From Acutalibacteraceae bacterium (lineage in GTDB: Bacteria > Bacillota > Clostridia > Oscillospirales > Acutalibacteraceae), in NCBI GenBank assembly GCA_045659605.1, contig JAZOXF010000032.1, forward strand, positions 5,364-69,363: a DNA stretch of 64,000 nt. The letters are read 5' to 3'. Under the pieces are notes generated by a model. The model saw only the letters and a list, made by a program, of their open reading frames with translations, ran no database searches and had not been told where the DNA came from. Both the position numbers and the translations under genes were made by a program. This document shows, piece by piece, positions 17,838-60,563 of the stretch (positions within the stretch are counted from its first letter, which is position 1; the number at the start of each line of letters is the position of its first letter).

Positions 17838-18100
17838 AATATACAAACCTGTGATTAAGAGTAGTAGCCTTGCTTCGAGTTTTTTAGAGAGCTGTTTGTG
17901 GTGGAAAAACGGCAACTGAGCGCTTGGTGAATGGACTTATGAGGGCGACCGAAAGCATTTGCGAGTAGCAGTCGACGGGAAGTACCCGTTATAGTACACG
18001 CCGTATGATAGTACGGAAATGAGTGGATGAGTTTTCATCAATTTGGGTGGTACCACAGGATTAACACAGTCTTGTCCCATTTAGGGATAGGGCTTTTTTA
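17838..18100 (+). promoter_or_regulatory. T-box leader, tryptophan-specific (specifier UGG)
   Basis: AGAGA box at 17886. Specifier context GAA-TGG-A with TGG at 17932-17934. T-box sequence AATTTGGGTGGTACCACAGG at 18040-18059. A terminator stem CTTGTCCC/GGGATAGGG plus T6 follows at 18068-18098. Confidence 0.8.
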
Positions 18101-28883: not shown

Positions 28884-28892
28884 TTTAACGAA

Positions 28893-29088
28893 AAGTCCTG
28901 TGCTGTTCGCGGACCGTGACTTATATAGCCCTACAACCTTTAACATGGGGCCTAAACTCGTATAGTGGGCTTGCAGACCTCCCGCGGCTGTGCCGAGTTC
29001 GGAAGAAGGGAGCGCGAAGCTATACGGTCGGCACCCACCTGACTATTGTCAGGTTATTTTAAGCACATTACGGCAGTACGGGACCAAA
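28893..29088 (+). ncRNA. ssrS: Probable 6S RNA
   Basis: ~195 nt with 5' GTCCTGTGCTGTTCG pairing to 3' CGGCAGTACGGGAC (14 bp, 4 G-U). Segments resemble E. coli 6S from memory: TGTTCGC near the 5' end, CTCCCGCGGCTGTG.CGAG in the centre, and CACC-hairpin(CTGACTATTGTCAGG)-TTA on the 3' side of the bubble. It is non-coding and followed by a terminator. Confidence 0.55.
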
Positions 29089-44512: not shown

Positions 44513-46807
44513 ATGGCAAAAACACACGGTCAAAAGAGACAAAATAATGTTTTTTATACCATCATTACTGCGGTATTGTTGTGTGTAGTTTTTTTGACTA
44601 TGGTTAGTCATCTTTATATTTCGGCAAAAAATGAAGCTGAGGAAAATCTTCATATTCAAACAAAGCAAATTAAGGACGATATTACCCTTCAATTGATTTC
44701 CGACCGTGAAAATCTTTCGACCATGGCCAACTTTGCTGCAAAACTTTACAGCGATGGTGAAAGTTACAATTTAATGTTTGACTCCTTTAAACCCATTGGC
44801 TTGATTGAAAATATTGGCATATTAACACCCGATAATAATTTTGTCACAAAGGCAGGTTCCATTGACCTTAACGGAAAAATCGTTTTTGATGAAGAAAAGC
44901 AAAAAGGCGCTTATATAAGCGGAAGAATCAAAGACCTTACTAGAGATAATTATGAAATTATCAGAAGCGCAGTGCCGATTGTTGTAAAAAACGAAACAGT
45001 AGGCATTTTGTATGGCGTTATTAAGCTTGACAAGATTGGCGAAAGATATAACCAAATGGCAAAAGATTTGGATGCTCAACTTTTCGTGTATGACAAGGAA
45101 AACGGAAATCTTGTTATTGATAATATTCACGATACCCTCGGCAACATTTCTTTTTTGAAAGACCGTGTTTATAACGAAGATTATTCTTATGAGCAAATTA
45201 TGGCAACCGATAAAGGATTTACTTCATTTGTGTCGGCTTACAAGGATGAAAACACTTATATGCATTACTCCACCATTGAAGAAATTGGTTGGATTATTGC
45301 CATGGCAAGATATGATTCGCAAGTGTTTGCTGCAACTGAAGAATTAGCCAGTATTTTAATTTTAGTATTTTTCATAATGCTTGTGATTATTGTTCTTTAC
45401 ATAATTGCACTGTTAACCGGTGAAAAACAGGTAAATAGAATAACTGACTGCGCTTCAGATATAAGAAAAACACTTTTGGAAACATCGGGAAGCCAGGATA
45501 ATATTGTTGATTCCTTAGTGCAGATGTGTGAATTTTCTCGCGCAAGGTCGGCAGTGTTTTTCGATAGCGACGGGGAAGCTTTTGATTATATTTCACCTCG
45601 ATTTAAAGAGGTCGTATTTACCGAAAAAGAGAAAAATTATTTTAAATCGGAGTTATTCCGTTATGCCGCCGAGCATCATCAATCAGGTGGAGCGGCTGTA
45701 AATGTTTTGAGTATTAAGGCTAATGCTCATTTGTATAAGACCAATCAAGGATTTTATGAGTTTTTAAAAAAGGAAAAAATCTCCGATATTATATTCTCGA
45801 CTACTATTAATAACGCCAACCATATTACAATTTTGGCTGTTATTAATTCAAAATATAAAAGACAGGTCAAAATGCTTGCCGAAAAAACAGCGGCTTGTTT
45901 TTCCATGGCTTTGTATAATAAAAACTATCTTAACAAAACTAAACTCGTTGCAACCACCGACTCTTTAACAGGAGCCTTAAATCGTGTTGCATATAAAAGC
46001 GATTTAGTGGTTTTTGATGAGGAAAAACCCACGGATTTCTCCTGTATTTATGTTGATGTTAACGAACTTCATCTTATAAATAATAAGTTTGGACATGCCT
46101 CGGGCGACCAAATGCTATTATATATTGCCAACACCTTGAAGGATGTTTTTTATGGCCACAAGGTTTACCGAATGGGCGGAGATGAATTCTTGGTATTTTG
46201 TAAAAATACCGACCAAGCTGTTGTTGAAAAAAGTATTGAAATTTTTGTGGACCAACTTAAGCCCCGTAATTATCATGTTGCAATCGGTCTTTCTTTCAGA
46301 ACTCAAAATAAGGATACCGAAGAAATGGTAAGAGAAGCAGAAGTGAGAATGTACGAAGCAAAGGCTGAGTATTACCAAAACAAAGAGCACAAATCGCCTG
46401 ATGTATTATCTGCTGGGGAATATCTTCAGGTTAGAACCGGAATAATTGAAATTGATACAATACTTTCGATTTTGAAAGAAAAATATAATGGTATATACCG
46501 TGTTTCGTTGGATACCGATAAAGCAAGACGTATTTTAATGCCGGCATATTTAAACTATAATGAACACGAGGAACATTTTTCCGAACTGTTCACAAAATAT
46601 GTATCTGAATTGGTAGAGCCGGATTATCACAGAGCGGTAATGAGTTTCCTTAACTATGATGCGCTTAAACATCAGTTAAGTGAAGATAAAACACCTAAAA
46701 TTACCTATAAAAAGAATGATGGCGAATCGGTGGTTTTAAGTGTTTATAAACTTTGTGACGGAAACGATTTAGTTTCAGATACCCTTTGGGTTTTTGCAAA
46801 CGGGTAG
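44513..46807 (+). CDS. Membrane diguanylate cyclase: extracytoplasmic Cache-like sensor, TM, GAF-like region, canonical GGDEF, plus a ~150-aa C-terminal domain of unknown type
   Basis: TM1 (residues ~15-35), a ~250-aa extracytoplasmic domain and TM2. GGDEF domain: TDSLTGALNRVAY, DVNELHLINNKFGHASGD and YRMGGDEFLVF. A tail after the domain ends in ...VLSVYKLCDGNDLVSDTLWVFANG. Confidence 0.8.
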   Translation: MAKTHGQKRQNNVFYTIITAVLLCVVFLTMVSHLYISAKNEAEENLHIQTKQIKDDITLQLISDRENLSTMANFAAKLYSDGESYNLMFDSFKPIGLIENIGILTPDNNFVTKAGSIDLNGKIVFDEEKQKGAYISGRIKDLTRDNYEIIRSAVPIVVKNETVGILYGVIKLDKIGERYNQMAKDLDAQLFVYDKENGNLVIDNIHDTLGNISFLKDRVYNEDYSYEQIMATDKGFTSFVSAYKDENTYMHYSTIEEIGWIIAMARYDSQVFAATEELASILILVFFIMLVIIVLYIIALLTGEKQVNRITDCASDIRKTLLETSGSQDNIVDSLVQMCEFSRARSAVFFDSDGEAFDYISPRFKEVVFTEKEKNYFKSELFRYAAEHHQSGGAAVNVLSIKANAHLYKTNQGFYEFLKKEKISDIIFSTTINNANHITILAVINSKYKRQVKMLAEKTAACFSMALYNKNYLNKTKLVATTDSLTGALNRVAYKSDLVVFDEEKPTDFSCIYVDVNELHLINNKFGHASGDQMLLYIANTLKDVFYGHKVYRMGGDEFLVFCKNTDQAVVEKSIEIFVDQLKPRNYHVAIGLSFRTQNKDTEEMVREAEVRMYEAKAEYYQNKEHKSPDVLSAGEYLQVRTGIIEIDTILSILKEKYNGIYRVSLDTDKARRILMPAYLNYNEHEEHFSELFTKYVSELVEPDYHRAVMSFLNYDALKHQLSEDKTPKITYKKNDGESVVLSVYKLCDGNDLVSDTLWVFANG

Positions 46808-46813
46808 ATATTC

Positions 46814-46842
46814 TTGACAAAGACGAATCATTGTAATATACT
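46814..46842 (+). promoter_or_regulatory. Promoter TTGACA-17-TATACT in front of the riboswitch
   Basis: TTGACA at 46814-46819 and TATACT at 46837-46842. It begins 7 nt after the DGC stop. Confidence 0.55.
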
Positions 46843-46849
46843 AATTGGT

Positions 46850-46930
46850 GTGAATATTTAGCAAAATCGGTGAAAGCCGATGACGCAAAGCCAAGAGGCT
46901 AAGGTTTTATACTATGCCAGTCCAGCTGCA
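46850..46930 (+). promoter_or_regulatory. c-di-GMP-I (GEMM-I) riboswitch aptamer
   Basis: AGCAAAATCGGTGAAAGCCGATGACGCAAAGCCAAGAGGCTAAGG...TGCCAGTCCAGCTGC. It has the GCAAA element, a GAAA-capped hairpin, the invariant GACGCAAAGCC and the CUAAGG...GCCAG second arm, as in Vc2 and Cd1. Confidence 0.85.
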
Positions 46931-46978
46931 ATGATACAAGGTCTTTGATAAAGACTTTTTATTGTTGCGGCTTTTTTC
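46925..46978 (+). terminator. Riboswitch expression platform: nested terminator hairpins
   Basis: The outer stem GCTGCAATGATA / TATTGTTGCGGC is followed by T6. The inner hairpin GTCTTT-GAT-AAAGAC is followed by T5. The 5' arm overlaps the 3' end of the aptamer. Confidence 0.65.
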
Positions 46979-47047: not shown

Positions 47048-47884
47048 ATGAGCAATAAAATTATTGAATTTTTTAAAGGTATTGCATCAGAAAAAAAGCC
47101 CTATTTTAGCGATAAAAAACTCTTAAAGAAAATTGAAAACGGATTCAAAAACAATGAATTTAAGATGTATCTTCAATTTATTGTGGACACCAAGAAGAAA
47201 ATTGTTTCGGCCGAAACCCTATCAAGATGGGAAAATTCCGCAGGGGATATAATTTTCCCCGGTGAATATATTGGAACAATGGAGAAGTCCGGTCTTATTT
47301 CGAAATTTGATTATTATATGTTTGAGAAGGTTTGCAGTAAACTTGCCGCTTGGAAAAACACCGAGTTTGGAGACCTTACTATTTCTTGCAATTTCACAAG
47401 AATTACAATTTCGGAAAAAGGTTTTGCAAACAAAATAAAGTCAATTGCCGATAAGTATGATTTCGATAGAAGAAAATTATTAATTGAAATTACCGAGGAT
47501 TCTATCGAAAAGAACTTGGTTACCGCCATGTATAATATCATTAAGGTAAAAGAACTTGGCTTCCGCATTGCCTTGGACGATATCGGAAGCGGTTATACCT
47601 CTTTGGTTAGTCTTTGCGAATATCCCATTGATGTTGTTAAGATTGATAGAGAAATTCTTCTTTTAACAGGTACCGAAAAAGGCAAAAAGTTGCTTTTGGG
47701 TATTGTGGCTTTGGCGCACTATTTGAATTTAAAGGTTGTGTGCGAAGGTGTTGAAACCGAAGAACAAAATCAATTGGTAACGGATAGTGGCTGTGATTAT
47801 ATTCAAGGTTGGTATTATTCAAAAGCGCTTTCCGAAACTCAGGCGGAAAAGTTTGCGAAAGATTATATGAGTAAGTTTATATAA
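47048..47884 (+). CDS. Stand-alone EAL domain c-di-GMP phosphodiesterase
   Basis: AETLSRW, LIEITEDS, ALDDIGSGYTSL, VKIDREI, CEGVETEEQ and IQGWYYSKAL. The catalytic EAL-family residues appear intact. Confidence 0.8.
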   Translation: MSNKIIEFFKGIASEKKPYFSDKKLLKKIENGFKNNEFKMYLQFIVDTKKKIVSAETLSRWENSAGDIIFPGEYIGTMEKSGLISKFDYYMFEKVCSKLAAWKNTEFGDLTISCNFTRITISEKGFANKIKSIADKYDFDRRKLLIEITEDSIEKNLVTAMYNIIKVKELGFRIALDDIGSGYTSLVSLCEYPIDVVKIDREILLLTGTEKGKKLLLGIVALAHYLNLKVVCEGVETEEQNQLVTDSGCDYIQGWYYSKALSETQAEKFAKDYMSKFI

Positions 47885-49964: not shown

Positions 49965-50695
49965 GTATTCCAAAAGTAATTCATTATTGTTGGTTTGGCA
50001 AGGGTGAAATGCCCAAACTTGCTAAAAAATGCATTAAAAGTTGGAAGAAATATTGTCCCGATTATGAAATAATTTGTTGGAACGAAGAAAATTTCGATTT
50101 AACACAAAACCGCTATATGCATGAAGCATACGAAGCGGGTAAGTGGGCATTTGTCAGCGATGTTGCAAGACTTAAAATTATTTATGATAATGGCGGTATA
50201 TATTTAGATACCGATGTTGAAATTATAAAACCTATTGATGATTTGCTCAAAAGTAAAGGTTTTATGGGATTTGATGAAAAAGGCATTGTTGCCACAGGTC
50301 TGGGCTTCGGTGCCGAGAAGGGAAACGAAATTGTTGGCGAGTTTTTAAAGGATTATGACAATATTCCCTTTGTTTTGCCCGATGGCAGTTTTGATCTTAC
50401 TCCTTGTCCCGATAGAAATACCGAAACTTTAAAAAGACTCGGTATGGATACGGAAAATACAAATCAAAACTTTTTGGGTGTTGACTTTTTAGCCTGCGAA
50501 TACCTTTGCCCAATGGATTATTACACAGGTAAAAAGACAATAACTGAAAATACATATTCAATACATCATTATTCAGCTTCGTGGACTTCGAAAGTCACCA
50601 AAAGAACAACACGAATTAAGCGGATTATTGGTCTTAAGATGTATAATAAATTATACGGAAAATTTTTACATAAATTTAAGTGGCTGGAGTGGTAA
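49961..50695 (+). CDS. Glycosyltransferase family 32-like (DXD sugar-binding region)
   Basis: IPKVIHYCWFG, FVSDVARLKIIYDNGGIYLDTDVE (DXD). ATGA overlap with wzx. Confidence 0.7.
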   Translation: MSIPKVIHYCWFGKGEMPKLAKKCIKSWKKYCPDYEIICWNEENFDLTQNRYMHEAYEAGKWAFVSDVARLKIIYDNGGIYLDTDVEIIKPIDDLLKSKGFMGFDEKGIVATGLGFGAEKGNEIVGEFLKDYDNIPFVLPDGSFDLTPCPDRNTETLKRLGMDTENTNQNFLGVDFLACEYLCPMDYYTGKKTITENTYSIHHYSASWTSKVTKRTTRIKRIIGLKMYNKLYGKFLHKFKWLEW

Positions 50696-52236
50696 TTTTG
50701 CCCGAAGAATTATTTGGAAAATTTAAAAAGAATATCTTGCCTCAGTGGAAAGTGTGCTTTTGGTCGGCGCTTATCATTGGGTTGGTTGCCCATTTGTATA
50801 AAATTGTAAATTGGCTTCCAAACTGGGATTCCTTGGTTTTCAGATATGATGCGCAAAATATGGTTTCCATGGGAAGATGGTTCTTACCCGTTGCATCAGC
50901 CCCCAGTTCTTTTTACGATTTGCCATGGATTACAGGACTTTTATCAATTTTATTCCACGGCTTGGGCGCAGTTTGCATTTGTAAGATTTTCGATGTAAAG
51001 AAAAATACAACTGCGGCATTAATTGGCGCTGCGGTAGTTTCTTTCCCCACTGTCACATCGGTAATGCTATACAATTATGTGGCTGATTCCTATGCTTTAT
51101 CTTTCCTTTTGGCATGTTTGGCGGCGCTTTTTATAACAAGCGAGAAACCAAAGTTTGTTTTGGCCGCCATACTAATTGCCTTGTCGGTGGGAATTTATCA
51201 GGCTTATATAACGGTTACAATAATGCTTTTGCTTTGCTTCCTTATAAGAGAGGTTTTGTTTAAAGGTGAAAAGATTAAAACCTTGCTTATTAAAACTGTA
51301 AAGTTTTTGTTGACCGGAGCAGCCGGTATGGCGCTTTATTACTTGGCGCTTGTAATCATTTTAAAGATTACGGAAACCAAACTTTTGGAGTATCAAGGCT
51401 TTGATAATGCGGCCACACTTTCAAATATAAATATTTTAGGTTCCCTTTACATTGTTAAGGAATCTTTTGTATCCTATTTTTTTGATTTTTCAAAGGGACC
51501 GAATGTATTTAATGTTGTAAATATTATAATTTTAATTTCCACATTTTTATTTTATTTAATTGAAGTTGTCAGAAATAAACTAAAGATTTCTAAGGTTTTG
51601 GCGCTTTGTGTCGGCGCAGTTCTTTTGCCTATTGGCGCAAGTATTTTAGGATTTGTAAACAGCAGTATTGATTACCACAACCTGATGAAGATGGGATTTT
51701 TCGTCTTTTATTTATTCTTCATATTAGAGTATGAAAATACTGATTTTAAAGCCGAAAACCTCAACAAATCAAAGTCTTGGTTTATACTTGTTGTAACAGC
51801 GGTTTTGATTTTTAATCAGGTGATTATCGCTAATATTAGTTATCATAAAATCACTATTGCCTATGAAAAATCTTACGGAACGTTAATTAGAATTGCCGAC
51901 CGTATTGAACAAACCGAAGGTGCAAATGAGTGCGACAGTATTTTGGTGTTGGGCGCTTTGGAAGGCAGTGAGGCGTACAGTTCTGTTGTTTCTTTAGATA
52001 TGACCGGAACTACCGATGAATATATCTTGAGAGCCGACGATGAAATCGTAGGTCAAAGTGTTTTGACTAGCGCATTAAATGACTATTGCGGTAAAGATTA
52101 TAAATTTATTTCGGGCAAAGAAAAAACTGCATTACTTAAAAAGATAGATGCAGACAGTTTGAATAATTGGCCCCATAAGGATTCGGTTTTTGTAATTGAT
52201 GATGTTATTGTTATTAAATTAGGGGACGAAAGGTAG
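50680..52236 (+). CDS. Polytopic membrane protein, GtrII-like glucosyltransferase family (GT-C-like)
   Basis: The N-terminus NWLPNWDSLVFRYDAQNMVSMGRWFLP resembles the Glucos_trans_II family. There are ~10 TM helices and a soluble C-terminal domain. The start is uncertain (GTG 50680 or TTG 50698). Confidence 0.5.
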   Translation: MAGVVILPEELFGKFKKNILPQWKVCFWSALIIGLVAHLYKIVNWLPNWDSLVFRYDAQNMVSMGRWFLPVASAPSSFYDLPWITGLLSILFHGLGAVCICKIFDVKKNTTAALIGAAVVSFPTVTSVMLYNYVADSYALSFLLACLAALFITSEKPKFVLAAILIALSVGIYQAYITVTIMLLLCFLIREVLFKGEKIKTLLIKTVKFLLTGAAGMALYYLALVIILKITETKLLEYQGFDNAATLSNINILGSLYIVKESFVSYFFDFSKGPNVFNVVNIIILISTFLFYLIEVVRNKLKISKVLALCVGAVLLPIGASILGFVNSSIDYHNLMKMGFFVFYLFFILEYENTDFKAENLNKSKSWFILVVTAVLIFNQVIIANISYHKITIAYEKSYGTLIRIADRIEQTEGANECDSILVLGALEGSEAYSSVVSLDMTGTTDEYILRADDEIVGQSVLTSALNDYCGKDYKFISGKEKTALLKKIDADSLNNWPHKDSVFVIDDVIVIKLGDER

Positions 52237-52242
52237 ATTTAG

Positions 52243-53100
52243 ATGGTATATTTTTGTGCGGATGATTATGGTATATCAAAAGAATGTAATAGCCGCATAG
52301 AAAAATGTATCGAAAGCGGTGTTTTAAATAAAATAAGTGTTTTGCCAAACGGCGAACTGGAAAATTTCAAACAACGCTTGTCAAAATACGACGTTAAAAT
52401 ATCTTTACATATTAATTTAATTGAAGGTAAACCTTTGTCGCCAACCCATGATATTAATATGTTGGTAAATGATGAAGGAAATTTTAAATATTCCTTTATC
52501 GGATTGCTTTTACTTTCCCTTTCCCACAAAAGAAAACAACTTAAAAAGCAGTTGTATAAAGAAATTAAAGAACAAATTGTTTTTTGGAAAAAGAATATGG
52601 GTGAAAATCCTCTTTGGATTGACAGTCATCAGTATACTCATATGATACCACTGATTTTTAAAACCTTAATGCAGGTAATTAAGGATGAAGGGGTGGATGC
52701 CCAGTATCTTCGCATCCCAAACGAGCCTGTAACACCGTACCTTTTAACACCTTCTGTATATACTGAATGTAGTTTTATAGGGTTAACAAAACAATGGCTT
52801 TTAAAGTTTTTTACCCTTATTAATAAAAAACAATTTGAAAAATCAAACATAAACACAGCCTGTTTTATGGGGGTAATGTTTTCAGGAAAGGTTACCTGTA
52901 AGAGAATCAAAAATGTGCTTCCCCGTTATTTGAAAATCGCCAAAAAACAGGGAAGAGACATTGAAATAGCACTGCATCCCGGATATTTGGAAGCGGGTGA
53001 GTCCTTAATGGATGGTTGCAGGGCCGATTTTAAAAAGTTTTATTTATCGAAGGATCGTAAAATAGAGTACGATACCCTTATGAATTTTAAGTTTGAATAA
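52243..53100 (+). CDS. YdjC/ChbG/HpnK family carbohydrate deacetylase
   Basis: The N-terminus VYFCADDYGISKECNSRIEKCIESGVLNKISVL matches the YdjC pattern, with later DSHQYTH and HPG. Confidence 0.7.
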   Translation: MVYFCADDYGISKECNSRIEKCIESGVLNKISVLPNGELENFKQRLSKYDVKISLHINLIEGKPLSPTHDINMLVNDEGNFKYSFIGLLLLSLSHKRKQLKKQLYKEIKEQIVFWKKNMGENPLWIDSHQYTHMIPLIFKTLMQVIKDEGVDAQYLRIPNEPVTPYLLTPSVYTECSFIGLTKQWLLKFFTLINKKQFEKSNINTACFMGVMFSGKVTCKRIKNVLPRYLKIAKKQGRDIEIALHPGYLEAGESLMDGCRADFKKFYLSKDRKIEYDTLMNFKFE

Positions 53101-53115: not shown

Positions 53116-53802
53116 ATGAAAATGCCTTACATTGAAAGCGAAAAAGTTGATGAAAAAACCAGAGTCAAATTAGAGGCTTTGCTTGAAAAATCATATTTGT
53201 CATATTGGAGAAAGAAAAGACTTTTTGACATATTTTTTGCCACTTTAATTTTACTTTTCTTTATTCCGCTTATGGTCATTATTGCTATTGTTATATGCAT
53301 TGATGACCCAAGCGCAGGACCCTTCTTTAAACAAAAAAGAGTTGGAAGACACGGTAAGGAATTTTATATGTATAAATTCCGTACCATGCGACCCAATGCA
53401 GAAAGTATTATTGATGAACTTAAGGACAAAAACGAAATGCAAGGTCCTGTTTTTAAAATGAAGGATGACCCGAGAATTACAAGGGTTGGAAAAATTTTGA
53501 GAAAATTGTCTTTGGATGAACTTATGCAGTTTTTCAATGTTTTCAAGGGGGATATGACCTTGGTGGGACCAAGACCACCCCTACCAAGAGAGGTAGAATA
53601 TTACACCGATTATCAAAAACTTCGTTTACTGGTTACTCCCGGAATCACCTGCACTTGGCAAATCCATAAAAACAGAAATGATGTTCCCTTTGAAGAATGG
53701 GTTGAAATGGATTTAGATTACATACAAAACAGAACCTTCCCGGGTGATATTTTGATTATGCTTAAAACACCAATTGTAATGCTTAGCGCAACAGGAAGAT
53801 AA
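53116..53802 (+). CDS. Initiating polyprenyl-phosphate sugar-phosphate transferase (small monotopic PGT, EpsL/PglC-like)
   Basis: KRLFDIFFATLILLFFIPLMVIIAIVI, GPFFKQKRVGRHGKEFYMYKFRTM, LDELMQFFNVFKGDMTLVGPRP and DLDYI. Confidence 0.85.
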   Translation: MKMPYIESEKVDEKTRVKLEALLEKSYLSYWRKKRLFDIFFATLILLFFIPLMVIIAIVICIDDPSAGPFFKQKRVGRHGKEFYMYKFRTMRPNAESIIDELKDKNEMQGPVFKMKDDPRITRVGKILRKLSLDELMQFFNVFKGDMTLVGPRPPLPREVEYYTDYQKLRLLVTPGITCTWQIHKNRNDVPFEEWVEMDLDYIQNRTFPGDILIMLKTPIVMLSATGR

Positions 53803-54974: not shown

Positions 54975-55943
54975 ATGAGAAGATATAAACTTACTGAAAA
55001 ATCCAAGAAAATAAGGGTTTTAAAACTGTTTTTAATAAGTTTGATTTTTGTTGGCATTGCGGCTTCTATTGGCGTAGTTGGTTGCAATTACATTGAAAAC
55101 CGAAACTTTAAAGAAACCTTTTACTGTGTCAGCAGTCTGAAGGTTAACAATAAGATAAGGGTTGTTCAAATTTCTGATTTGCACAATGCTTCTTACGGTA
55201 AAAACAACAAAAAACTTATTGAAAGAGTAGAAAAGTTAGACCCTGATTTGATTGTTTATACAGGCGATTGCGTTGATTCTAACACAAAATCGATAGATAA
55301 GGTTGTTCAGTTGTGCTCTACGCTTGCAAAGGTAGCCCCTTCTTATTACATATACGGCAACAACGAGGTTGAAAAGTACTATGATGTGCTTTTAACCCAA
55401 AAAGATTTGGATGAGAAATTCGGATTTAACGATAAAAACCGTGACCCTGAGAAACTTTTGAAAATAACCGATTCCTTAACAAAAAAACTTGAAAAAGCCA
55501 ATGTTAAAGTTCTTAAAAACAGTATGGATACCATAACTGTTGGGTCTACAAATATTGATGTTTACGGCGTGTTAACATCTAATCCTTCATCCTTTTGGTC
55601 CTACGGCGGGGATAGTTTTGATAAATATATTTTCTCCAACGAAAATAATTTAAAAATAACTGCAATTCACGAACCTTTGGTTTTTGAAGAGTATACACCC
55701 GATACTTGGGGCGATGTGTTATTGGCAGGTCACACCCACGGTGGAACGGTTAAAATTCCGATGATTGGACCTTTATATACTCATGACGGTGGATTTTTAC
55801 CTGCCAGAAGCGGACATTTGGTTTACGGAAGATATGATGTTCAAGGCAGACCCTTAATTGTTAGTTCGGGACTTGAAAATAATAATATTTTCAGAATCAA
55901 TAACCAACCCGAACTGGTAGTTGTTGATATCAACAAATTTTAA
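54975..55943 (+). CDS. Membrane-anchored metallophosphoesterase (YkuE-like calcineurin fold)
   Basis: An N-terminal TM, then ISDLH, GDCVD, GNNE, HEP and GHTHGG. Confidence 0.8.
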   Translation: MRRYKLTEKSKKIRVLKLFLISLIFVGIAASIGVVGCNYIENRNFKETFYCVSSLKVNNKIRVVQISDLHNASYGKNNKKLIERVEKLDPDLIVYTGDCVDSNTKSIDKVVQLCSTLAKVAPSYYIYGNNEVEKYYDVLLTQKDLDEKFGFNDKNRDPEKLLKITDSLTKKLEKANVKVLKNSMDTITVGSTNIDVYGVLTSNPSSFWSYGGDSFDKYIFSNENNLKITAIHEPLVFEEYTPDTWGDVLLAGHTHGGTVKIPMIGPLYTHDGGFLPARSGHLVYGRYDVQGRPLIVSSGLENNNIFRINNQPELVVVDINKF

Positions 55944-55961
55944 TTAAAAGGAGTGCAATAT

Positions 55962-57320
55962 ATGTATTCATCACTTTTGCAAAAAGTACCCGTTGCGATA
56001 GCGGCAGTATTGCTGTTGGCGGCGGCTTTGATAATATATTTCCGTTCTAAAAATGTTACACGTACCGAGTTTGTTAAGATATTAAAGGCTACAAAATATC
56101 TTCAGGTTTGGGTGATTGTTTTTGTGATTGCTTTAACCGGTGTTTTTGGCATTTTTAATCATCTGAAATCTAAACAATCGGTTATGGCGGTAGTTTCCCT
56201 TAATTATTCCGAAGCTTCCATGGCGCAAAATTCCAACGGCACCCGATATAATATGGCTGAAATTATTTGCGATGAAGTAGTAGAAAAGGCAATTGATATG
56301 GGCGCATTTGAGGATGTTACCGTTAAGCAACTTAAAAACTGCTTGTCGGTTTATCCTTATGTTCAGGGTGATGTAAACGATAAATCCAATTATCACATTT
56401 CTACTGAATTTGTTGTTGAGTATCATGCTTCAAAACATACCGACCATTTAAATTCCGAAAATGTAATTATGTTGATTACAAGCGCTTATAAGGAATATTA
56501 TATTGAAAAATATACCGATAATTATAGTCTTACCGCGAAGGTAGAAAAACCTGATTTTTCCAAGATGGAATATATGGATATCGTAAGTTATTTTAATAAG
56601 GAAACAACATCGGTTTTAAATTATTTATACGGTATGGGAGAAAAAGGCCCAAGTTTTGTTACCCAAAACGATGCAACCTTCAATTCAATTGCAGGTAAGG
56701 TTTATCAGTTTAAAGAAACCCAAATTGAACAAAACTTGAGTTCCCTTATTTTGCAATACGGTATTGCAAAAGATAAGGCGGGTTATATTGATAGGCTTTC
56801 TTATCAAAATAAAAATACCGATTTTAACAAGCAAAAGAATTCGGCTTCCTTTGGTCTTTGTAATGCGGCTATTGATATGTACGCCGAGGAAATGACACGA
56901 GTTGTTTTAGTTCCTACTTGGGACGGCAGCGGTAAATATTATATGGGCCGAACAAAGGTGGGTATTGACGAACTGTCTGTAATGGCTGCATCTTTTAGCG
57001 ATAAGGTAGCTACTAACGATAAGGCGATTATGGATAACCAACTTGTTATAGAAAAAATGGAGTCGGCAATTAAAAACGGTTCGGCAAATTCTCAGGCAGA
57101 CGCGCTTATTAAGTCAATTGATAAAAGTATAGAAAACTTTAAGATTGAAGCTATTCAGGCGGGTAGAGAATATTCAAACTATACAATGAATCAGTGTATC
57201 GCTGTCAGCATTTCGGGGGTTTCCTTGTTTAGCCAATTAAAGGTTATTGCCCTGTTTGCAATTTTTGCTTACATTGCTGCAATAATGTTTTCAGTCTCTA
57301 AAAAATTTCCCAAGTCATAA
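55962..57320 (+). CDS. Polysaccharide-copolymerase-like membrane protein (TM - large extracytoplasmic domain - TM)
   Basis: Two N-terminal hydrophobic helices, a ~370-aa hydrophilic domain predicted helical, and a C-terminal TM (VIALFAIFAYIAAIMF). The call rests on topology and context only. Confidence 0.4.
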   Translation: MYSSLLQKVPVAIAAVLLLAAALIIYFRSKNVTRTEFVKILKATKYLQVWVIVFVIALTGVFGIFNHLKSKQSVMAVVSLNYSEASMAQNSNGTRYNMAEIICDEVVEKAIDMGAFEDVTVKQLKNCLSVYPYVQGDVNDKSNYHISTEFVVEYHASKHTDHLNSENVIMLITSAYKEYYIEKYTDNYSLTAKVEKPDFSKMEYMDIVSYFNKETTSVLNYLYGMGEKGPSFVTQNDATFNSIAGKVYQFKETQIEQNLSSLILQYGIAKDKAGYIDRLSYQNKNTDFNKQKNSASFGLCNAAIDMYAEEMTRVVLVPTWDGSGKYYMGRTKVGIDELSVMAASFSDKVATNDKAIMDNQLVIEKMESAIKNGSANSQADALIKSIDKSIENFKIEAIQAGREYSNYTMNQCIAVSISGVSLFSQLKVIALFAIFAYIAAIMFSVSKKFPKS

Positions 57321-57347: not shown

Positions 57348-59225
57348 ATGAAAAATTTTCAAATTATGAGATATTTAAAAAAGCTTTTGCCGATTTTTGT
57401 GGTTTTTTGTTTGGTGGCTACTTATGCAATTAATTTCAAACTCAAAGGTTCTAATACCTATGTAGCATCTGAAGTTATTCACTACAATGACCCTGCGGCA
57501 GAACAGGGATTAACCCCAACAGGTTCCAAACTGGATGTTAACGAAATTAAATCTTCGGCTGTAATGTCAAAGGTTGTTGACAAAATGGGGCTCACCGGAA
57601 TTTATTCGGTGGACAGTTTGATTTCAAGAGTTTCTATAACCCCACTTCCCGATGAGGATAAAATAGCTCAAAAGGAAGCAAAACTCGAAGAGGGCGAAGA
57701 ATACATCTACGAGCCAAGTACATATATCGTGTCTTTCACAGCTACAAACAATGAAGGACCTGATTTTGCGAGAACTATTCTTGATGAAACCCTTGACGTG
57801 TATTTTGCTGAATACAGCCAAAAATATGTTAACGTCGCTCCCGTGAAAAATGTCATAGATGATTTAGAAAACGAGAACTATGACTATATTGAAATGTTAG
57901 AAATAATTGATATGGGTATTGATGAAACATTGAATACTTTATATCAAAGAATGGAACAAAATCCTTACTATAGGGCAACTAATACAGGAGCTTCCTTTAG
58001 TGATTTGGCCGATGAGTTTAATTATTTAAGAAATGTCAGATTATCGGCATTGTTTTCAAAGATTTATAAAAACCAAATAACAAAAAACAAGACAATTTTG
58101 GTTTCTGATTATACAACAAGAATTGATAATAACAATATTTTAAATACAAAAGAAGAAAGTATCGTTAAAGATACGGTTGATGTTATTGACGCTTATGTTG
58201 AAAAAATGAGAGAGTCAGGAAACACCAACATTACTTATGAGTATATTCTTGATAACGTTCACGAGCGCAATTTGGTTGACGGTTCGGGTAATCCTATTAC
58301 ATCGGGTGACCAAACAGTAACATACGATGAGTTAATCTACAGTTGGAGAGACCACAACGAAACAAAAGAATACTCCATCATTGATACTGCTTATTGCCAA
58401 TATATTATTGAAACATTTTCGGCTTGTACCGGTAAATGCAACGGTAAGGAATGTTTAACTTCATCCCAAACCTGTACCGAATTGCACGATGAAAATTATA
58501 AAGAATTGAAAAAAGAAATTGACACTGAAATAGAGTCGCTTATTTCCGATTTGACAAAACTCTACAATACTACAATGAACACCAATGATGAGTATAATCA
58601 GTACCTTGGCGCAAGTTATATTTCGGTTTTATCCACTGCATCGGTAAAACCCAGCATTAATGTAAATCTTTACACTTTAATTGCCTTCTTCTTCCTTGTA
58701 ATTCTTTGCTGCGGCGGCGCGATTGTGTTGGGAAGAATGGGAGATATTATCAGTTACATCTTCTACACCGACCATCTTACCGAACTTAATAACCGCGCTT
58801 ATTTTGACAAATATCTAAAGTCTATGGATAAGAAGCTCTTGGATAACGGAACGGTTTATTGTATGGTTGAGATAGCAAATCTCGGCGCCATTAACAATGA
58901 ATACAGTCGACAAATAGGCGATGGCATCATTAAGATGTTCACAACATACTTGAAAGAATCTTTTGGTAAAACAAATGCCGAGTTTGTTTATAATGGCAAC
59001 GGTAGTTTTGTAATTATGGCTAAAGATTCCGATTATATCACTGTTGAGGATATTTTAAGACTCTTCGGTTTGAGACTTGATGAACGCGAAGATTATCAAA
59101 ACATAAAAATTGAATACAAGGTTGGCATTGCCGAAACCTTTAAAGAAAATCAAACTGCAAGAAGATTGCTTTCCGAAACCATTAAAAATAAAAAAGATTT
59201 TACATCTGAGGTTTTGGGAAAATAA
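57348..59225 (+). CDS. Wzz/PCP-like chain-length-determinant fused to a C-terminal degenerate GGDEF domain
   Basis: TM1, then a Wzz-like start (YVASEVIHYNDP...EIKSSAVMSKVVDKMGL), a coiled-coil region and TM2 (LIAFFFLVILCCGGAIVLG). The cytoplasmic part is DHLTELNNRAYFDKYL...CMVEIANLGAINNEYSRQIGDGII...FVYNGNGSFVIM...KVGIAE. This is a GGDEF fold with the metal and GG(D/E)EF residues replaced. Confidence 0.65.
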   Translation: MKNFQIMRYLKKLLPIFVVFCLVATYAINFKLKGSNTYVASEVIHYNDPAAEQGLTPTGSKLDVNEIKSSAVMSKVVDKMGLTGIYSVDSLISRVSITPLPDEDKIAQKEAKLEEGEEYIYEPSTYIVSFTATNNEGPDFARTILDETLDVYFAEYSQKYVNVAPVKNVIDDLENENYDYIEMLEIIDMGIDETLNTLYQRMEQNPYYRATNTGASFSDLADEFNYLRNVRLSALFSKIYKNQITKNKTILVSDYTTRIDNNNILNTKEESIVKDTVDVIDAYVEKMRESGNTNITYEYILDNVHERNLVDGSGNPITSGDQTVTYDELIYSWRDHNETKEYSIIDTAYCQYIIETFSACTGKCNGKECLTSSQTCTELHDENYKELKKEIDTEIESLISDLTKLYNTTMNTNDEYNQYLGASYISVLSTASVKPSINVNLYTLIAFFFLVILCCGGAIVLGRMGDIISYIFYTDHLTELNNRAYFDKYLKSMDKKLLDNGTVYCMVEIANLGAINNEYSRQIGDGIIKMFTTYLKESFGKTNAEFVYNGNGSFVIMAKDSDYITVEDILRLFGLRLDEREDYQNIKIEYKVGIAETFKENQTARRLLSETIKNKKDFTSEVLGK

Positions 59226-59252: not shown

Positions 59253-60563
59253 ATGAAAATGGAAAATAAACTGACAACCACCGGATTAAAGGGGTATTTT
59301 ATCGCAGTAGCGGTGCTTATGTACTATTTCCTTACCGAAACTATTAATCTTGGTTTGTTTGTTACCTATCGACATGCATTTGCCCTCGTTTTGTTTGCTT
59401 CGGCCTTCTTTTGTTTTTTGTTTAAACCTAACATTGCAAGAGGTGTTACTACACTTAAATCAACCTTTGTTTACTGTGTTCCCCTTATTGTAACCATTTT
59501 GGCTTCACTTTTTATATGGTTTATGGGTCAGGTGGATACAGCGGTTATTGCTCGCGGATTATCGGGAGCCTTTGTTTATAACAATATGATTTCCTTTACC
59601 CTTGCGGCAGTTGCATTTTTATATATTTTCGGTGAAAAAGGAATTTGGTATAACCTTATTGCAATTCTTATTTCAAATATGCTAATTATTTTTACCGTTA
59701 TTCTTCAAAACGGAATAGGCGTTTTCTTTTCCGAATTTGTAAGGCTTATTGTAACCTTTGCGGGAGAAACGGGAGATGTTATTGTTCAGGCCGAAATTCA
59801 CGAACTTGCTTTTTGTCTCGGTGCATATTTGATATATATGTTATTTAATTTTAAGAAAAATATAGTGTTTTTCATTCTTTTGGCGCTTACAGGATTTTGT
59901 TTTCTTGCTGCCTTTAAGCGAATTGGTATTATTGCAATTGTGGTTGCTCTAGGGTTGGGTTTTGCGCTAAAGTTTGTTGCAAAATTCAAAGAAAGCACAG
60001 CTAAAAATTTATCGGTAATATTTTCAGTGGTTTTGGTGCTGTTGCTGATAGGCTATATTGCAATCATAAAACTGGATGTTTTCACATTGCTTGAAAAAGC
60101 AGGAATTAACACCAGCGGTCGTGTTGAAATTTACAATGCGGTTGATAAATTTTACGATTTTTCTCCCGAATTTTTGGGTAACGGAATAGGATATTTAACA
60201 TATCAATTAAGTACCAATATGAATGTGGGCGTTTCATCGGTTCACAATGACTTTTTACAGTATTTCATCGACCTTGGATTTTGGGGATATATTTTGTGGC
60301 TTGTTTCTATGACAACGTTAAGGGTTTGTTATTTCGGCTCCAAGGGCAAAACCGATAACGGAATTTTAGCCTTAGCGCTTACGGTTTATCTTATCATAGT
60401 TTCTTCTACCGATAACACAATGAACTATCCACTGCTTACTACCGTAATTGCAATTATAATGATAGGCCACGGATTTGATGAATCGGTGCGTTTTAACGAA
60501 AATAAAATGTTTGGCTATGTTTCAAAAGTAAATGAAAGCCCGAAAGGGGATTCGCTTTTATGA
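59253..60563 (+). CDS. wzy: O-antigen/EPS polymerase (Wzy, O-antigen ligase family)
   Basis: About 11 TM helices and an extracytoplasmic loop with SSVHNDFLQYFIDLGFWG (Wzy_C-type motif). Confidence 0.7.
   Translation: MKMENKLTTTGLKGYFIAVAVLMYYFLTETINLGLFVTYRHAFALVLFASAFFCFLFKPNIARGVTTLKSTFVYCVPLIVTILASLFIWFMGQVDTAVIARGLSGAFVYNNMISFTLAAVAFLYIFGEKGIWYNLIAILISNMLIIFTVILQNGIGVFFSEFVRLIVTFAGETGDVIVQAEIHELAFCLGAYLIYMLFNFKKNIVFFILLALTGFCFLAAFKRIGIIAIVVALGLGFALKFVAKFKESTAKNLSVIFSVVLVLLLIGYIAIIKLDVFTLLEKAGINTSGRVEIYNAVDKFYDFSPEFLGNGIGYLTYQLSTNMNVGVSSVHNDFLQYFIDLGFWGYILWLVSMTTLRVCYFGSKGKTDNGILALALTVYLIIVSSTDNTMNYPLLTTVIAIIMIGHGFDESVRFNENKMFGYVSKVNESPKGDSLL

Follow-up and report, generated by a model that had tools for sequence, protein, structure and literature searches.

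A predicted Wzc-like co-polymerase with a degenerate GGDEF domain at the kinase position in exopolysaccharide clusters of Clostridia

Wzc of Escherichia coli (K30, colanic acid; PDB 7NHR and 9R62), a polysaccharide co-polymerase (PCP) of class PCP-2a that works with Wzy and Wzx, runs from a cytoplasmic N-terminus through a first transmembrane helix (TM1), a helical outside domain on an alpha/beta base and a second transmembrane helix (TM2) to a globular cytoplasmic domain, which is a Walker-A bacterial tyrosine kinase (BY-kinase) with a tyrosine-rich tail. The CpsC/CpsD, EpsA/EpsB and CapA/CapB systems (PCP-2b) of the Firmicutes pair a two-TM PCP with a cytoplasmic regulatory partner in Gram-positive Wzx/Wzy clusters. 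A different arrangement is found in PelD, PssE of Listeria and YdaK of Bacillus subtilis, which bind cyclic di-GMP (c-di-GMP) via an RxxD I-site and belong to synthase-dependent systems. According to a 2025 paper (PMC12802240), the way in which Wzx/Wzy pathways are regulated after translation is not fully understood, and control by c-di-GMP has been characterised for synthase-dependent systems. Here we describe a gene in a 64,000-nt stretch of DNA from an Acutalibacteraceae bacterium (GCA_045659605.1, contig JAZOXF010000032.1, positions 5,364-69,363 of the forward strand; hereafter the window) whose inferred product very probably combines the PCP layout of Wzc with a catalytically dead GGDEF domain at the position of the kinase. 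The features under discussion are collected in Table 1.

The inferred product, which we call the fusion protein, has the topology of a PCP. Two TM helices lie to either side of a large outside domain, spaced by about 410 residues as judged by hydropathy and, in agreement, by AlphaFold2 (AF2), and both termini are predicted to be cytoplasmic, the N-terminus being rich in lysine and arginine. In the full-length AF2 model (mean predicted local distance difference test score, pLDDT, 78.5) the TM2 helix continues unbroken to residue 473, and the DxLT motif of the GGDEF domain is no more than about 12 residues away from the membrane. Because Foldseek searches with the full-length model were swamped by GGDEF matches, the N-terminal part (aa 1-470) was modelled separately (pLDDT 79.9, predicted TM-score 0.63). 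In this model the outside domain consists of an alpha/beta base (strands at residues 37-46, 95-99, 125-133 and 425-435) and several long helices, and its best 28 Foldseek matches in the PDB were all PCPs (Wzc, WzzE and KpsE), with E-values of 8.8e-6 to 1.8e-4 and a probability of 1.0 for Wzc (9r68, 7nhr and others) and an E-value of 2.5e-3 for WzzE.

Homologues of intermediate distance pointed in the same direction. An exhaustive search with aa 1-470 yielded 669 representative clusters (at 50% identity). Pfam Wzz was matched at E<=1 by 21 of 36 homologues that have no C-terminal domain; one homologue, P0289, scored 29.4 bits, above the cutoff of 25.5, with P0314 (23.7 bits) and P0354 (22.2 bits) falling just short of it. 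When the family profile was aligned with WzzB and Wzc of E. coli, TM1 and the first strand came into register (hhalign E=0.005 and 0.027), a weak result whose probabilities of 2-7% cannot carry the assignment by themselves. The gene context is likewise that of a PCP: genes for a Wzy-type polymerase, a priming transferase and a putative Wzx accompany the fusion gene here, and the same holds in its relatives.

Several results nevertheless speak against calling the protein a PCP. Pfam Wzz (PF02706) found no match on it even at E<=10, and Pfam and NCBIfam searches with the N-terminal part alone returned nothing useful. The family profile, run against the sequences of the PDB, recovered no PCP and only coiled-coil noise (PI3K p85). 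Classic PCPs carry a Pro/Gly-rich motif before or overlapping TM2, PX2PX4SPKX11GXMXG; in the fusion protein this is only vestigial (ASVKPSINVNLYTLIAFFFLVILCCGGAIVLG, with one proline, P434, and glycine residues in TM2), and there is no conserved proline before TM2 in the family consensus. Finally, the global TM-scores of the PCP matches were low (0.17-0.37), and the call rests on a predicted structure of pLDDT about 80; low scores are to be expected in models of extended helical hairpins, and they make this an assignment of the N-terminal part to a fold class, not a close superposition. An earlier annotation made by a model from the letters of the window (the sequence-only reading) had called the protein a Wzz/PCP. 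Pfam could not verify that call on the protein itself; structure prediction and intermediate homologues were needed to support it, with Wzc as the closest member. In view of the N-terminal model, the intermediate homologues and the gene context, we take the modelled protein to be of PCP fold, with a layout closest to that of Wzc, and we infer that it functions as a co-polymerase.

Two features of the outside domain may be mentioned here. A membrane-distal tip segment at residues 291-338 (58218-58361; SGNTNITYEYIL...TVTYDxLIYSWRDH) is among the most conserved parts and is modelled with a pLDDT of <50. Beyond the tip lie five cysteines, C350, C360, C364, C369 and C376 (residues 350-376; 58395-58475), which are unusual for an extracellular segment in an anaerobe. 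The conserved tip or the cysteine cluster could be an interaction or metal site.

The cytoplasmic domain has the GGDEF fold but not the GGDEF catalytic residues. Pfam GGDEF (PF00990) matched residues 473-610 at 41.3 bits (gathering cutoff 23.8; E=1.8e-10). Among sequences in the PDB the best match was a diguanylate cyclase of Thermotoga maritima (4urs, E=5e-5), followed by DgcR and PleD, and Foldseek matched the full-length model to GGDEF domains only, with a target-normalised TM-score of about 0.7 (4urg, FimX 3hva, 3ign). Within the window its best match is the dCache-GGDEF protein (27% identity, E=1e-7). The sequence reads DHLTELNNR at the place of DxLTxLxNR (residues 475-483), EIANLG at that of DIDxFK (508-513, with E508 for the metal-binding Asp and G513 for the Lys), SRQIGD at that of GHxxGD (520-525) and NGNGSF at that of GG(D/E)EF (549-554). 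All of these replacements, as well as the fold itself, had been recognised correctly by the sequence-only reading. It had also found no I-site, and indeed KTNA (541-544) occupies the place of RxxD, which in I-site receptors precedes the GGDEF position by five residues; what it had overlooked is an RxxD elsewhere, the only one in the protein, R463-M-G-D466 directly after TM2. With GG(D/E)EF, the metal-binding Asp and the Lys of DxDxFK all gone, the domain is, as judged by its sequence, non-catalytic, and the RxxD that marks an I-site receptor is missing as well.

The same degeneracy runs through the family, for which we counted motifs in 359 full-length relatives and scored conservation in a 55-sequence alignment (23-41% identity to the fusion protein). 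GG[DE]EF occurs at the hairpin in none of the 359, and 342 of them have YNxxxx[FYL] there instead. One relative, P0213, was considered as a possible exception with an intact motif and set aside: the pattern match sits at the GHxxGD position, and the P0213 hairpin reads YNGNSQF. Conserved in the alignment are the hairpin residues Y548 (48/55), N549 (50/55) and F554 (47/55), together with N516 (37/55), R521 (46/55), G524 (44/55), D525 (44/55) and R605 (51/55); the equivalents of the metal-binding Asp (508), the Lys (513) and the I-site (541-544) are not conserved. N335 and D344 of PleD, which we take to be its guanine-contacting positions, are both kept in the domain, the equivalent of the guanine-contacting Asn in 37 of 55 sequences. 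Since the catalytic hairpin has been lost family-wide and the pocket and hairpin residues have been kept, the domain is an old, selectively maintained, non-catalytic fold. Conservation is equally strong at the membrane interface, where position 463 is Arg in 52 of 55 sequences and position 466 Asp or Glu in 53, and where a G[RK]xx[DE]hh pattern is present in 344 of the 359 relatives.

The fusion gene is not alone in its cluster in encoding a PCP-like protein. The inferred product of orf455, the gene just upstream, exhibits 20% identity to the PCP domain of the fusion protein over 289 columns (pairwise BLASTP E=4e-6) and bears an extra N-terminal TM segment. Upstream of orf455, in turn, is a gene for a metallophosphoesterase that is predicted to have its N-terminus inside, a TM anchor and its catalytic domain outside. 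We examined eight related loci (L001, L053/54, L055, L056, L057, L058, L060 and L061). In every one a gene for a protein of 450-552 aa without a Pfam match lies immediately upstream of the PCP gene, and tblastn matched that upstream gene to orf455 in L001, L043, L044 and L053-L055. A TM-anchored Metallophos gene adjoins the PCP pair in seven of the eight, the exception being L057. Relatives of 30-86% identity share this arrangement, and natural fusions join its members: P0314 (917 aa) consists of PCP, dead GGDEF domain, TM segment and Metallophos, and P0331 (945 aa) of an orf455-like part and PCP. Thus, a TM-metallophosphoesterase, an orf455-type PCP-like paralogue and a PCP of the kind described here form a conserved module in Wzx/Wzy-type exopolysaccharide (EPS) clusters of Clostridia. 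Short homologues of about 455 aa were considered as orthologues of orf455 and rejected, all 39 being closer to the N-terminal domain of the fusion protein.

No kinase belongs to this module. A motif scan of all open reading frames (ORFs) in the 64-kb window revealed no BY-kinase candidate, the cluster of L001 beyond the equivalent of the window's end contains no BY-kinase or phosphatase, and no kinase-type Pfam family was found in the eight related loci. Nor is there a tyrosine cluster in the tail of the fusion protein (...KNKKDFTSEVLGK), whose C-terminal domain is a GGDEF domain and not a Walker-type tyrosine autokinase. The sequence-only reading was therefore right that a BY-kinase/phosphatase pair is missing. 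It went too far in proposing that nucleotide binding "replaces tyrosine phosphorylation": members of the subfamily that have no C-terminal domain (L056 and L057) share the module and are likewise kinase-less. The lineage being kinase-less in either case, the domain is to be seen as an add-on and not as the replacement of a kinase.

What follows TM2 varies within the PCP subfamily. Among its top representatives 75 have a dead GGDEF domain and 39 have no domain, and in two, P0354 (L060:4960-7179) and P0365 (L061:8001-10295), TM2 is directly followed by an EAL domain of about 200 bits, in the same module. Three catalytic motifs of the EAL domain are degenerate in P0354 (EVSN for ExxE, DNFG for DDFG and KLS for KxD) and one in P0365 (EISS). 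Judging from these replacements, P0354 may be a non-hydrolysing c-di-GMP binder.

Table 1. Positions of the fusion gene, its parts and neighbouring features in the window
Feature	Position	Strand	Basis or remark
dCache + GGDEF protein, directly upstream of riboswitch	44513-46807	+	Pfam; GGDEF motif at aa 555
Sigma-70-like promoter, TTGACA-17-TATACT, 11/12 positions	46814-46842	+	consensus match only; just upstream of riboswitch
c-di-GMP-I riboswitch aptamer, operon head	46850-46933	+	Rfam RF01051, 60.4 bits vs cutoff 35
Long hairpin + U-run, terminator-like	46924-46977	+	RNA fold, z=-3.8
Stand-alone EAL phosphodiesterase, first operon gene	47048-47884	+	Pfam EAL 195.8 bits; catalytic motifs intact
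Putative Wzx-type flippase, polytopic, 502 aa	48456-49964	+	no Pfam match; topology and context inference only
GtrII-like + YdjC-like genes	50680-53100	+	variable insert
Priming phosphoglycosyl transferase (Bac_transf)	53116-53802	+	Pfam
TM-anchored metallophosphoesterase, calcineurin-like	54975-55943	+	Pfam Metallophos; NCBIfam YaeI/LpxG-like below cutoffs
orf455, distant PCP-like paralogue, no cytoplasmic domain	55953-57320	+	BLASTP, synteny
Fusion gene, Wzc-like PCP + C-terminal degenerate GGDEF	57348-59225	+	ATG start, 625 aa
TM1, ~aa 12-32	57381-57443	+	hydropathy; AF2 helix 3-34
Extracytoplasmic PCP-fold domain, aa 33-438	57444-58661	+	AF2, Foldseek, conservation
TM2, ~aa 439-462	58662-58733	+	hydropathy, AF2
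Juxtamembrane motif G462-R463-x-x-D466-h-h-x-Y470, RxxD-like	58731-58757	+	family-wide conservation
Degenerate GGDEF-fold domain, aa 473-610	58764-59177	+	Pfam, PDB sequence matches, Foldseek
Hairpin Y548-N-G-N-G-S-F554 at catalytic GG(D/E)EF place	58989-59009	+	alignments, family motif counts
Wzy-type polymerase (Wzy_C), next gene after fusion gene	59253-60563	+	Pfam

The cluster itself is a co-directional, tightly packed string of genes that also includes glycosyltransferases. As the sequence-only reading had noted, a c-di-GMP riboswitch heads the operon, a gene for a GGDEF protein precedes it and an EAL gene comes first within it. The riboswitch lies in the sense-strand 5' leader, its aptamer ending 115 nt before the start of the EAL gene. 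The 5' strand of the terminator-like hairpin shares only about 7 nt with the 3' end of the aptamer, and a simple terminator scan did not flag this hairpin. If the riboswitch is turned on by its ligand, the EAL protein of the operon would degrade its own inducer, resulting in negative feedback. The dCache-GGDEF protein reads VDVNELH at the DIDxFK place, the second Asp being replaced by Asn and the Lys by His, and has no RxxD in residues 561-600, just downstream of its GGDEF motif; with such a sequence, cyclase activity should not be assumed.

The region beyond the 3' end of the window was inferred from a syntenic relative that is 86% identical (P0005, locus L001). Past the equivalent of the window's end L001 contains a family 2 glycosyltransferase (GT2) gene, a gene for a TM-anchored EAL protein, a second GT2 gene and an acyltransferase gene, followed by convergent, unrelated genes. 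This second EAL protein (L001:17622-18992, 456 aa) consists of an N-terminal TM segment, a region of about 170 residues unmatched in Pfam and an EAL domain whose motifs are intact, and it is conserved in most relatives of at least 66% identity. Its N-terminal region was considered as a related dead GGDEF domain and rejected, as it has no detectable similarity and Pfam reports EAL only.

In relatives of at least 66% identity the entire cluster is conserved. Its EAL genes are kept, as is the upstream GGDEF gene wherever it can be seen, and in this clade a GGDEF protein and one or two EAL genes lie in or adjoin the cluster. A c-di-GMP-I riboswitch is also present in L009, L021 and L041. L034 and L038 lack it and have the GGDEF gene abutting the cluster; these loci, together with relatives of 33-51% identity that have no riboswitch, rule it out as a universal feature of the family. 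The GtrII-like/YdjC-like insert is missing from the otherwise syntenic clusters L021, L032, L038, L041 and L050. Elsewhere in the window we noted a T-box leader at 17842-18082 (+; 114 bits vs a gathering score of 93) and a 6S (SsrS) RNA gene at 28892-29088 (+; 56.3 bits vs a gathering score of 46.4).

How might a dead GGDEF domain serve a co-polymerase? We favor, with a probability of roughly 0.5, a regulatory role that is linked to c-di-GMP. Under this proposal the fusion protein and orf455 would form a hetero-oligomeric scaffold around Wzy, and the dead GGDEF domain, standing on a helix continuous with TM2, would be its regulatory input, through which the c-di-GMP state of the cell would bear on how the polymerisation complex assembles or works. 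One way to achieve this would be for a guanine nucleotide to be bound by the domain at a non-canonical site, either the degenerate A-site (N516, R521, D525, Y548, N549 and R605) or the juxtamembrane R463xxD466; direct binding of this kind is a rather doubtful component of the proposal. Alternatively, the domain might dock a c-di-GMP enzyme. In the clade of the fusion protein there is a second layer of control at the level of transcription, with the c-di-GMP-I riboswitch in front of an operon whose first, intact-looking EAL gene would create feedback.

The strongest indirect evidence for a role connected with c-di-GMP is that dead GGDEF and EAL domains alternate at the same slot. The YNG hairpin and the conservation of the pocket residues point to a surface for a specific interaction. 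Together the data suggest, but do not prove, that c-di-GMP controls a Wzx/Wzy polymer machine directly. The broadest form of the idea, an unrecognised class of co-polymerases that is kinase-less, that combines two PCP-like paralogues with an outward-facing metallophosphoesterase and in which c-di-GMP gates Wzy via a fused dead GGDEF domain, or in sister proteins a fused EAL domain, at a non-canonical site, we advance only tentatively.

On the other side of the balance, an I-site RxxD lies within 12 residues upstream of the hairpin in only two of 342 relatives, and the domain has lost the Mg and phosphate ligands that tight binding of GTP requires. R463 could merely be a positive-inside membrane anchor. 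In relatives of 30-51% identity neither GGDEF nor EAL genes nor a riboswitch occur within about 10 kb, from which it follows that the c-di-GMP neighborhood is clade-specific. Finally, the domain-less members of the subfamily in L056 and L057 occur in the same module, again without a kinase, and hence the core function does not require the domain.

Some of these same observations would be accounted for if the dead GGDEF domain had no ligand at all and served structure or oligomerisation instead, its dimer contacts or a ring in the cytoplasm lending stability to the PCP oligomer in a way similar to the kinase ring of Wzc, with c-di-GMP acting via the riboswitch only. Degenerate GGDEF domains without a nucleotide function exist, for example GdpS and CsrD, and GdpS is among the weak NCBIfam matches of the fusion protein. 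The loss of I-site, metal and phosphate ligands, the distant relatives without nearby c-di-GMP genes and the domain-less relatives in the same module all fit such a role. A purely structural role would not, however, predict that Y548, N549 and the former pocket residues N516, R521, D525 and R605 should be so strongly and specifically conserved, nor that the slot should alternatively hold EAL, a c-di-GMP-binding fold of unrelated structure. We consider this explanation the most serious competitor, with a probability of a little under one in three.

A second competitor, which we hold to be unlikely, is that the domain is a docking site that forms a heterodimer with the dCache-GGDEF protein or recruits an EAL protein, with local turnover of c-di-GMP or poisoning of a cyclase in a non-productive dimer as the outcome. 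GGDEF domains act as dimers, the cluster-linked dCache-GGDEF protein is the best match to the domain in the window, and a GGDEF protein and EAL genes travel with the cluster in the clade of at least 66% identity. Yet relatives of 30-51% identity keep the domain with no GGDEF or EAL gene nearby, and no similarity to the domain was detected N-terminally in the second EAL protein. As to the view that the protein is no co-polymerase but a degenerate sensor-type GGDEF membrane protein with an outside domain that is only superficially PCP-like, the missing Pfam Wzz match, the failure of the family profile to find a PCP in the PDB and the low TM-scores and hhalign probabilities are what it would predict, but the exclusively PCP top matches in Foldseek at a probability of 1.0, the homologues that match Pfam Wzz, one of them above the cutoff, and the position of the gene beside Wzy and glycosyltransferase genes, in the same module, at every locus examined render it very improbable.

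The family is common in Clostridia of the human and ruminant gut, including the cultured Pseudoflavonifractor phocaeensis (WP_204882202.1) and Lacrimispora sp. Public records label relatives (P0057, P0083, P0163, P0437 and others) "diguanylate cyclase" or "GGDEF domain-containing protein", and in none of them is the PCP part annotated; for some 40 relatives at 33-34% identity there is no precomputed Pfam domain of any kind. The label "diguanylate cyclase" is contradicted by the sequences, and such mislabelling inflates counts of cyclases. Because the PCP part is invisible to Pfam, surveys of domain architecture miss the fusion. Our literature searches found no description of a Wzz/PCP-GGDEF fusion, in agreement with the sequence-only reading, and the combination is apparently undescribed. 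A PCP with c-di-GMP-type domains at the place of the Wzc kinase is a candidate, concrete enough to be tested, for how Wzx/Wzy pathways may be controlled post-translationally; gating by c-di-GMP via a dead GGDEF or EAL domain would, if true, be the first post-translational control point for c-di-GMP in a Wzx/Wzy pathway, and one that is widespread in gut Clostridia. Moreover, a kinase-less module of two PCPs and a phosphoesterase speaks against a general need for a CpsD-type kinase in Gram-positive Wzy systems.

We close by setting the fusion protein against the systems it most resembles. R463-M-G-D466 has the form RxGD, which presumably is the form that binds c-di-GMP in the GIL domain of BcsE, and it is a lead only: there is no relation to GIL in sequence or fold, the family motif is RxxD/E at the membrane interface, and a conserved Arg is expected there anyway. 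LapD and FimX have enzymatically dead c-di-GMP domains that act as sensors; the S-helix-GGDEF part of LapD (6pwk) is among the Foldseek matches, and the PCP-EAL sister proteins, with their partly degenerate EAL motifs, add to the likeness. In LapD and FimX, however, it is the EAL domain that binds the ligand and the GGDEF domain that is passive, whereas the fusion protein has no EAL domain.

PelD, PssE and YdaK resemble the fusion protein in placing a membrane-anchored, catalytically dead GGDEF domain on an EPS machine. This analogy, drawn in the sequence-only reading, fails on its defining feature, the I-site RxxD, which is absent across the family, and the pathway is of the Wzx/Wzy type. The domain cannot, on its sequence, be classified with these receptors, although by analogy a functional parallel may exist.

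The PCP-2b systems share with the cluster described here a Gram-positive Wzx/Wzy setting and a metal-dependent phosphoesterase near the PCP genes, CpsB. They differ in that their outside loop is about 150 residues long, as against about 410 in the fusion protein, for which no separate BY-kinase was found, and in that CpsB is a cytoplasmic PHP phosphatase, whereas the enzyme of the module is a calcineurin-like Metallophos protein that is predicted to face outward.

Wzc is the best structural match and has the same order of parts from N-terminus to cytoplasmic domain, at marginal similarity in sequence. The cluster has no Wzb-type phosphatase and, its host being monoderm, no Wza. Where Wzc carries its BY-kinase and tyrosine-rich tail, the fusion protein carries a dead GGDEF domain, and it is paired with a second PCP-like paralogue.

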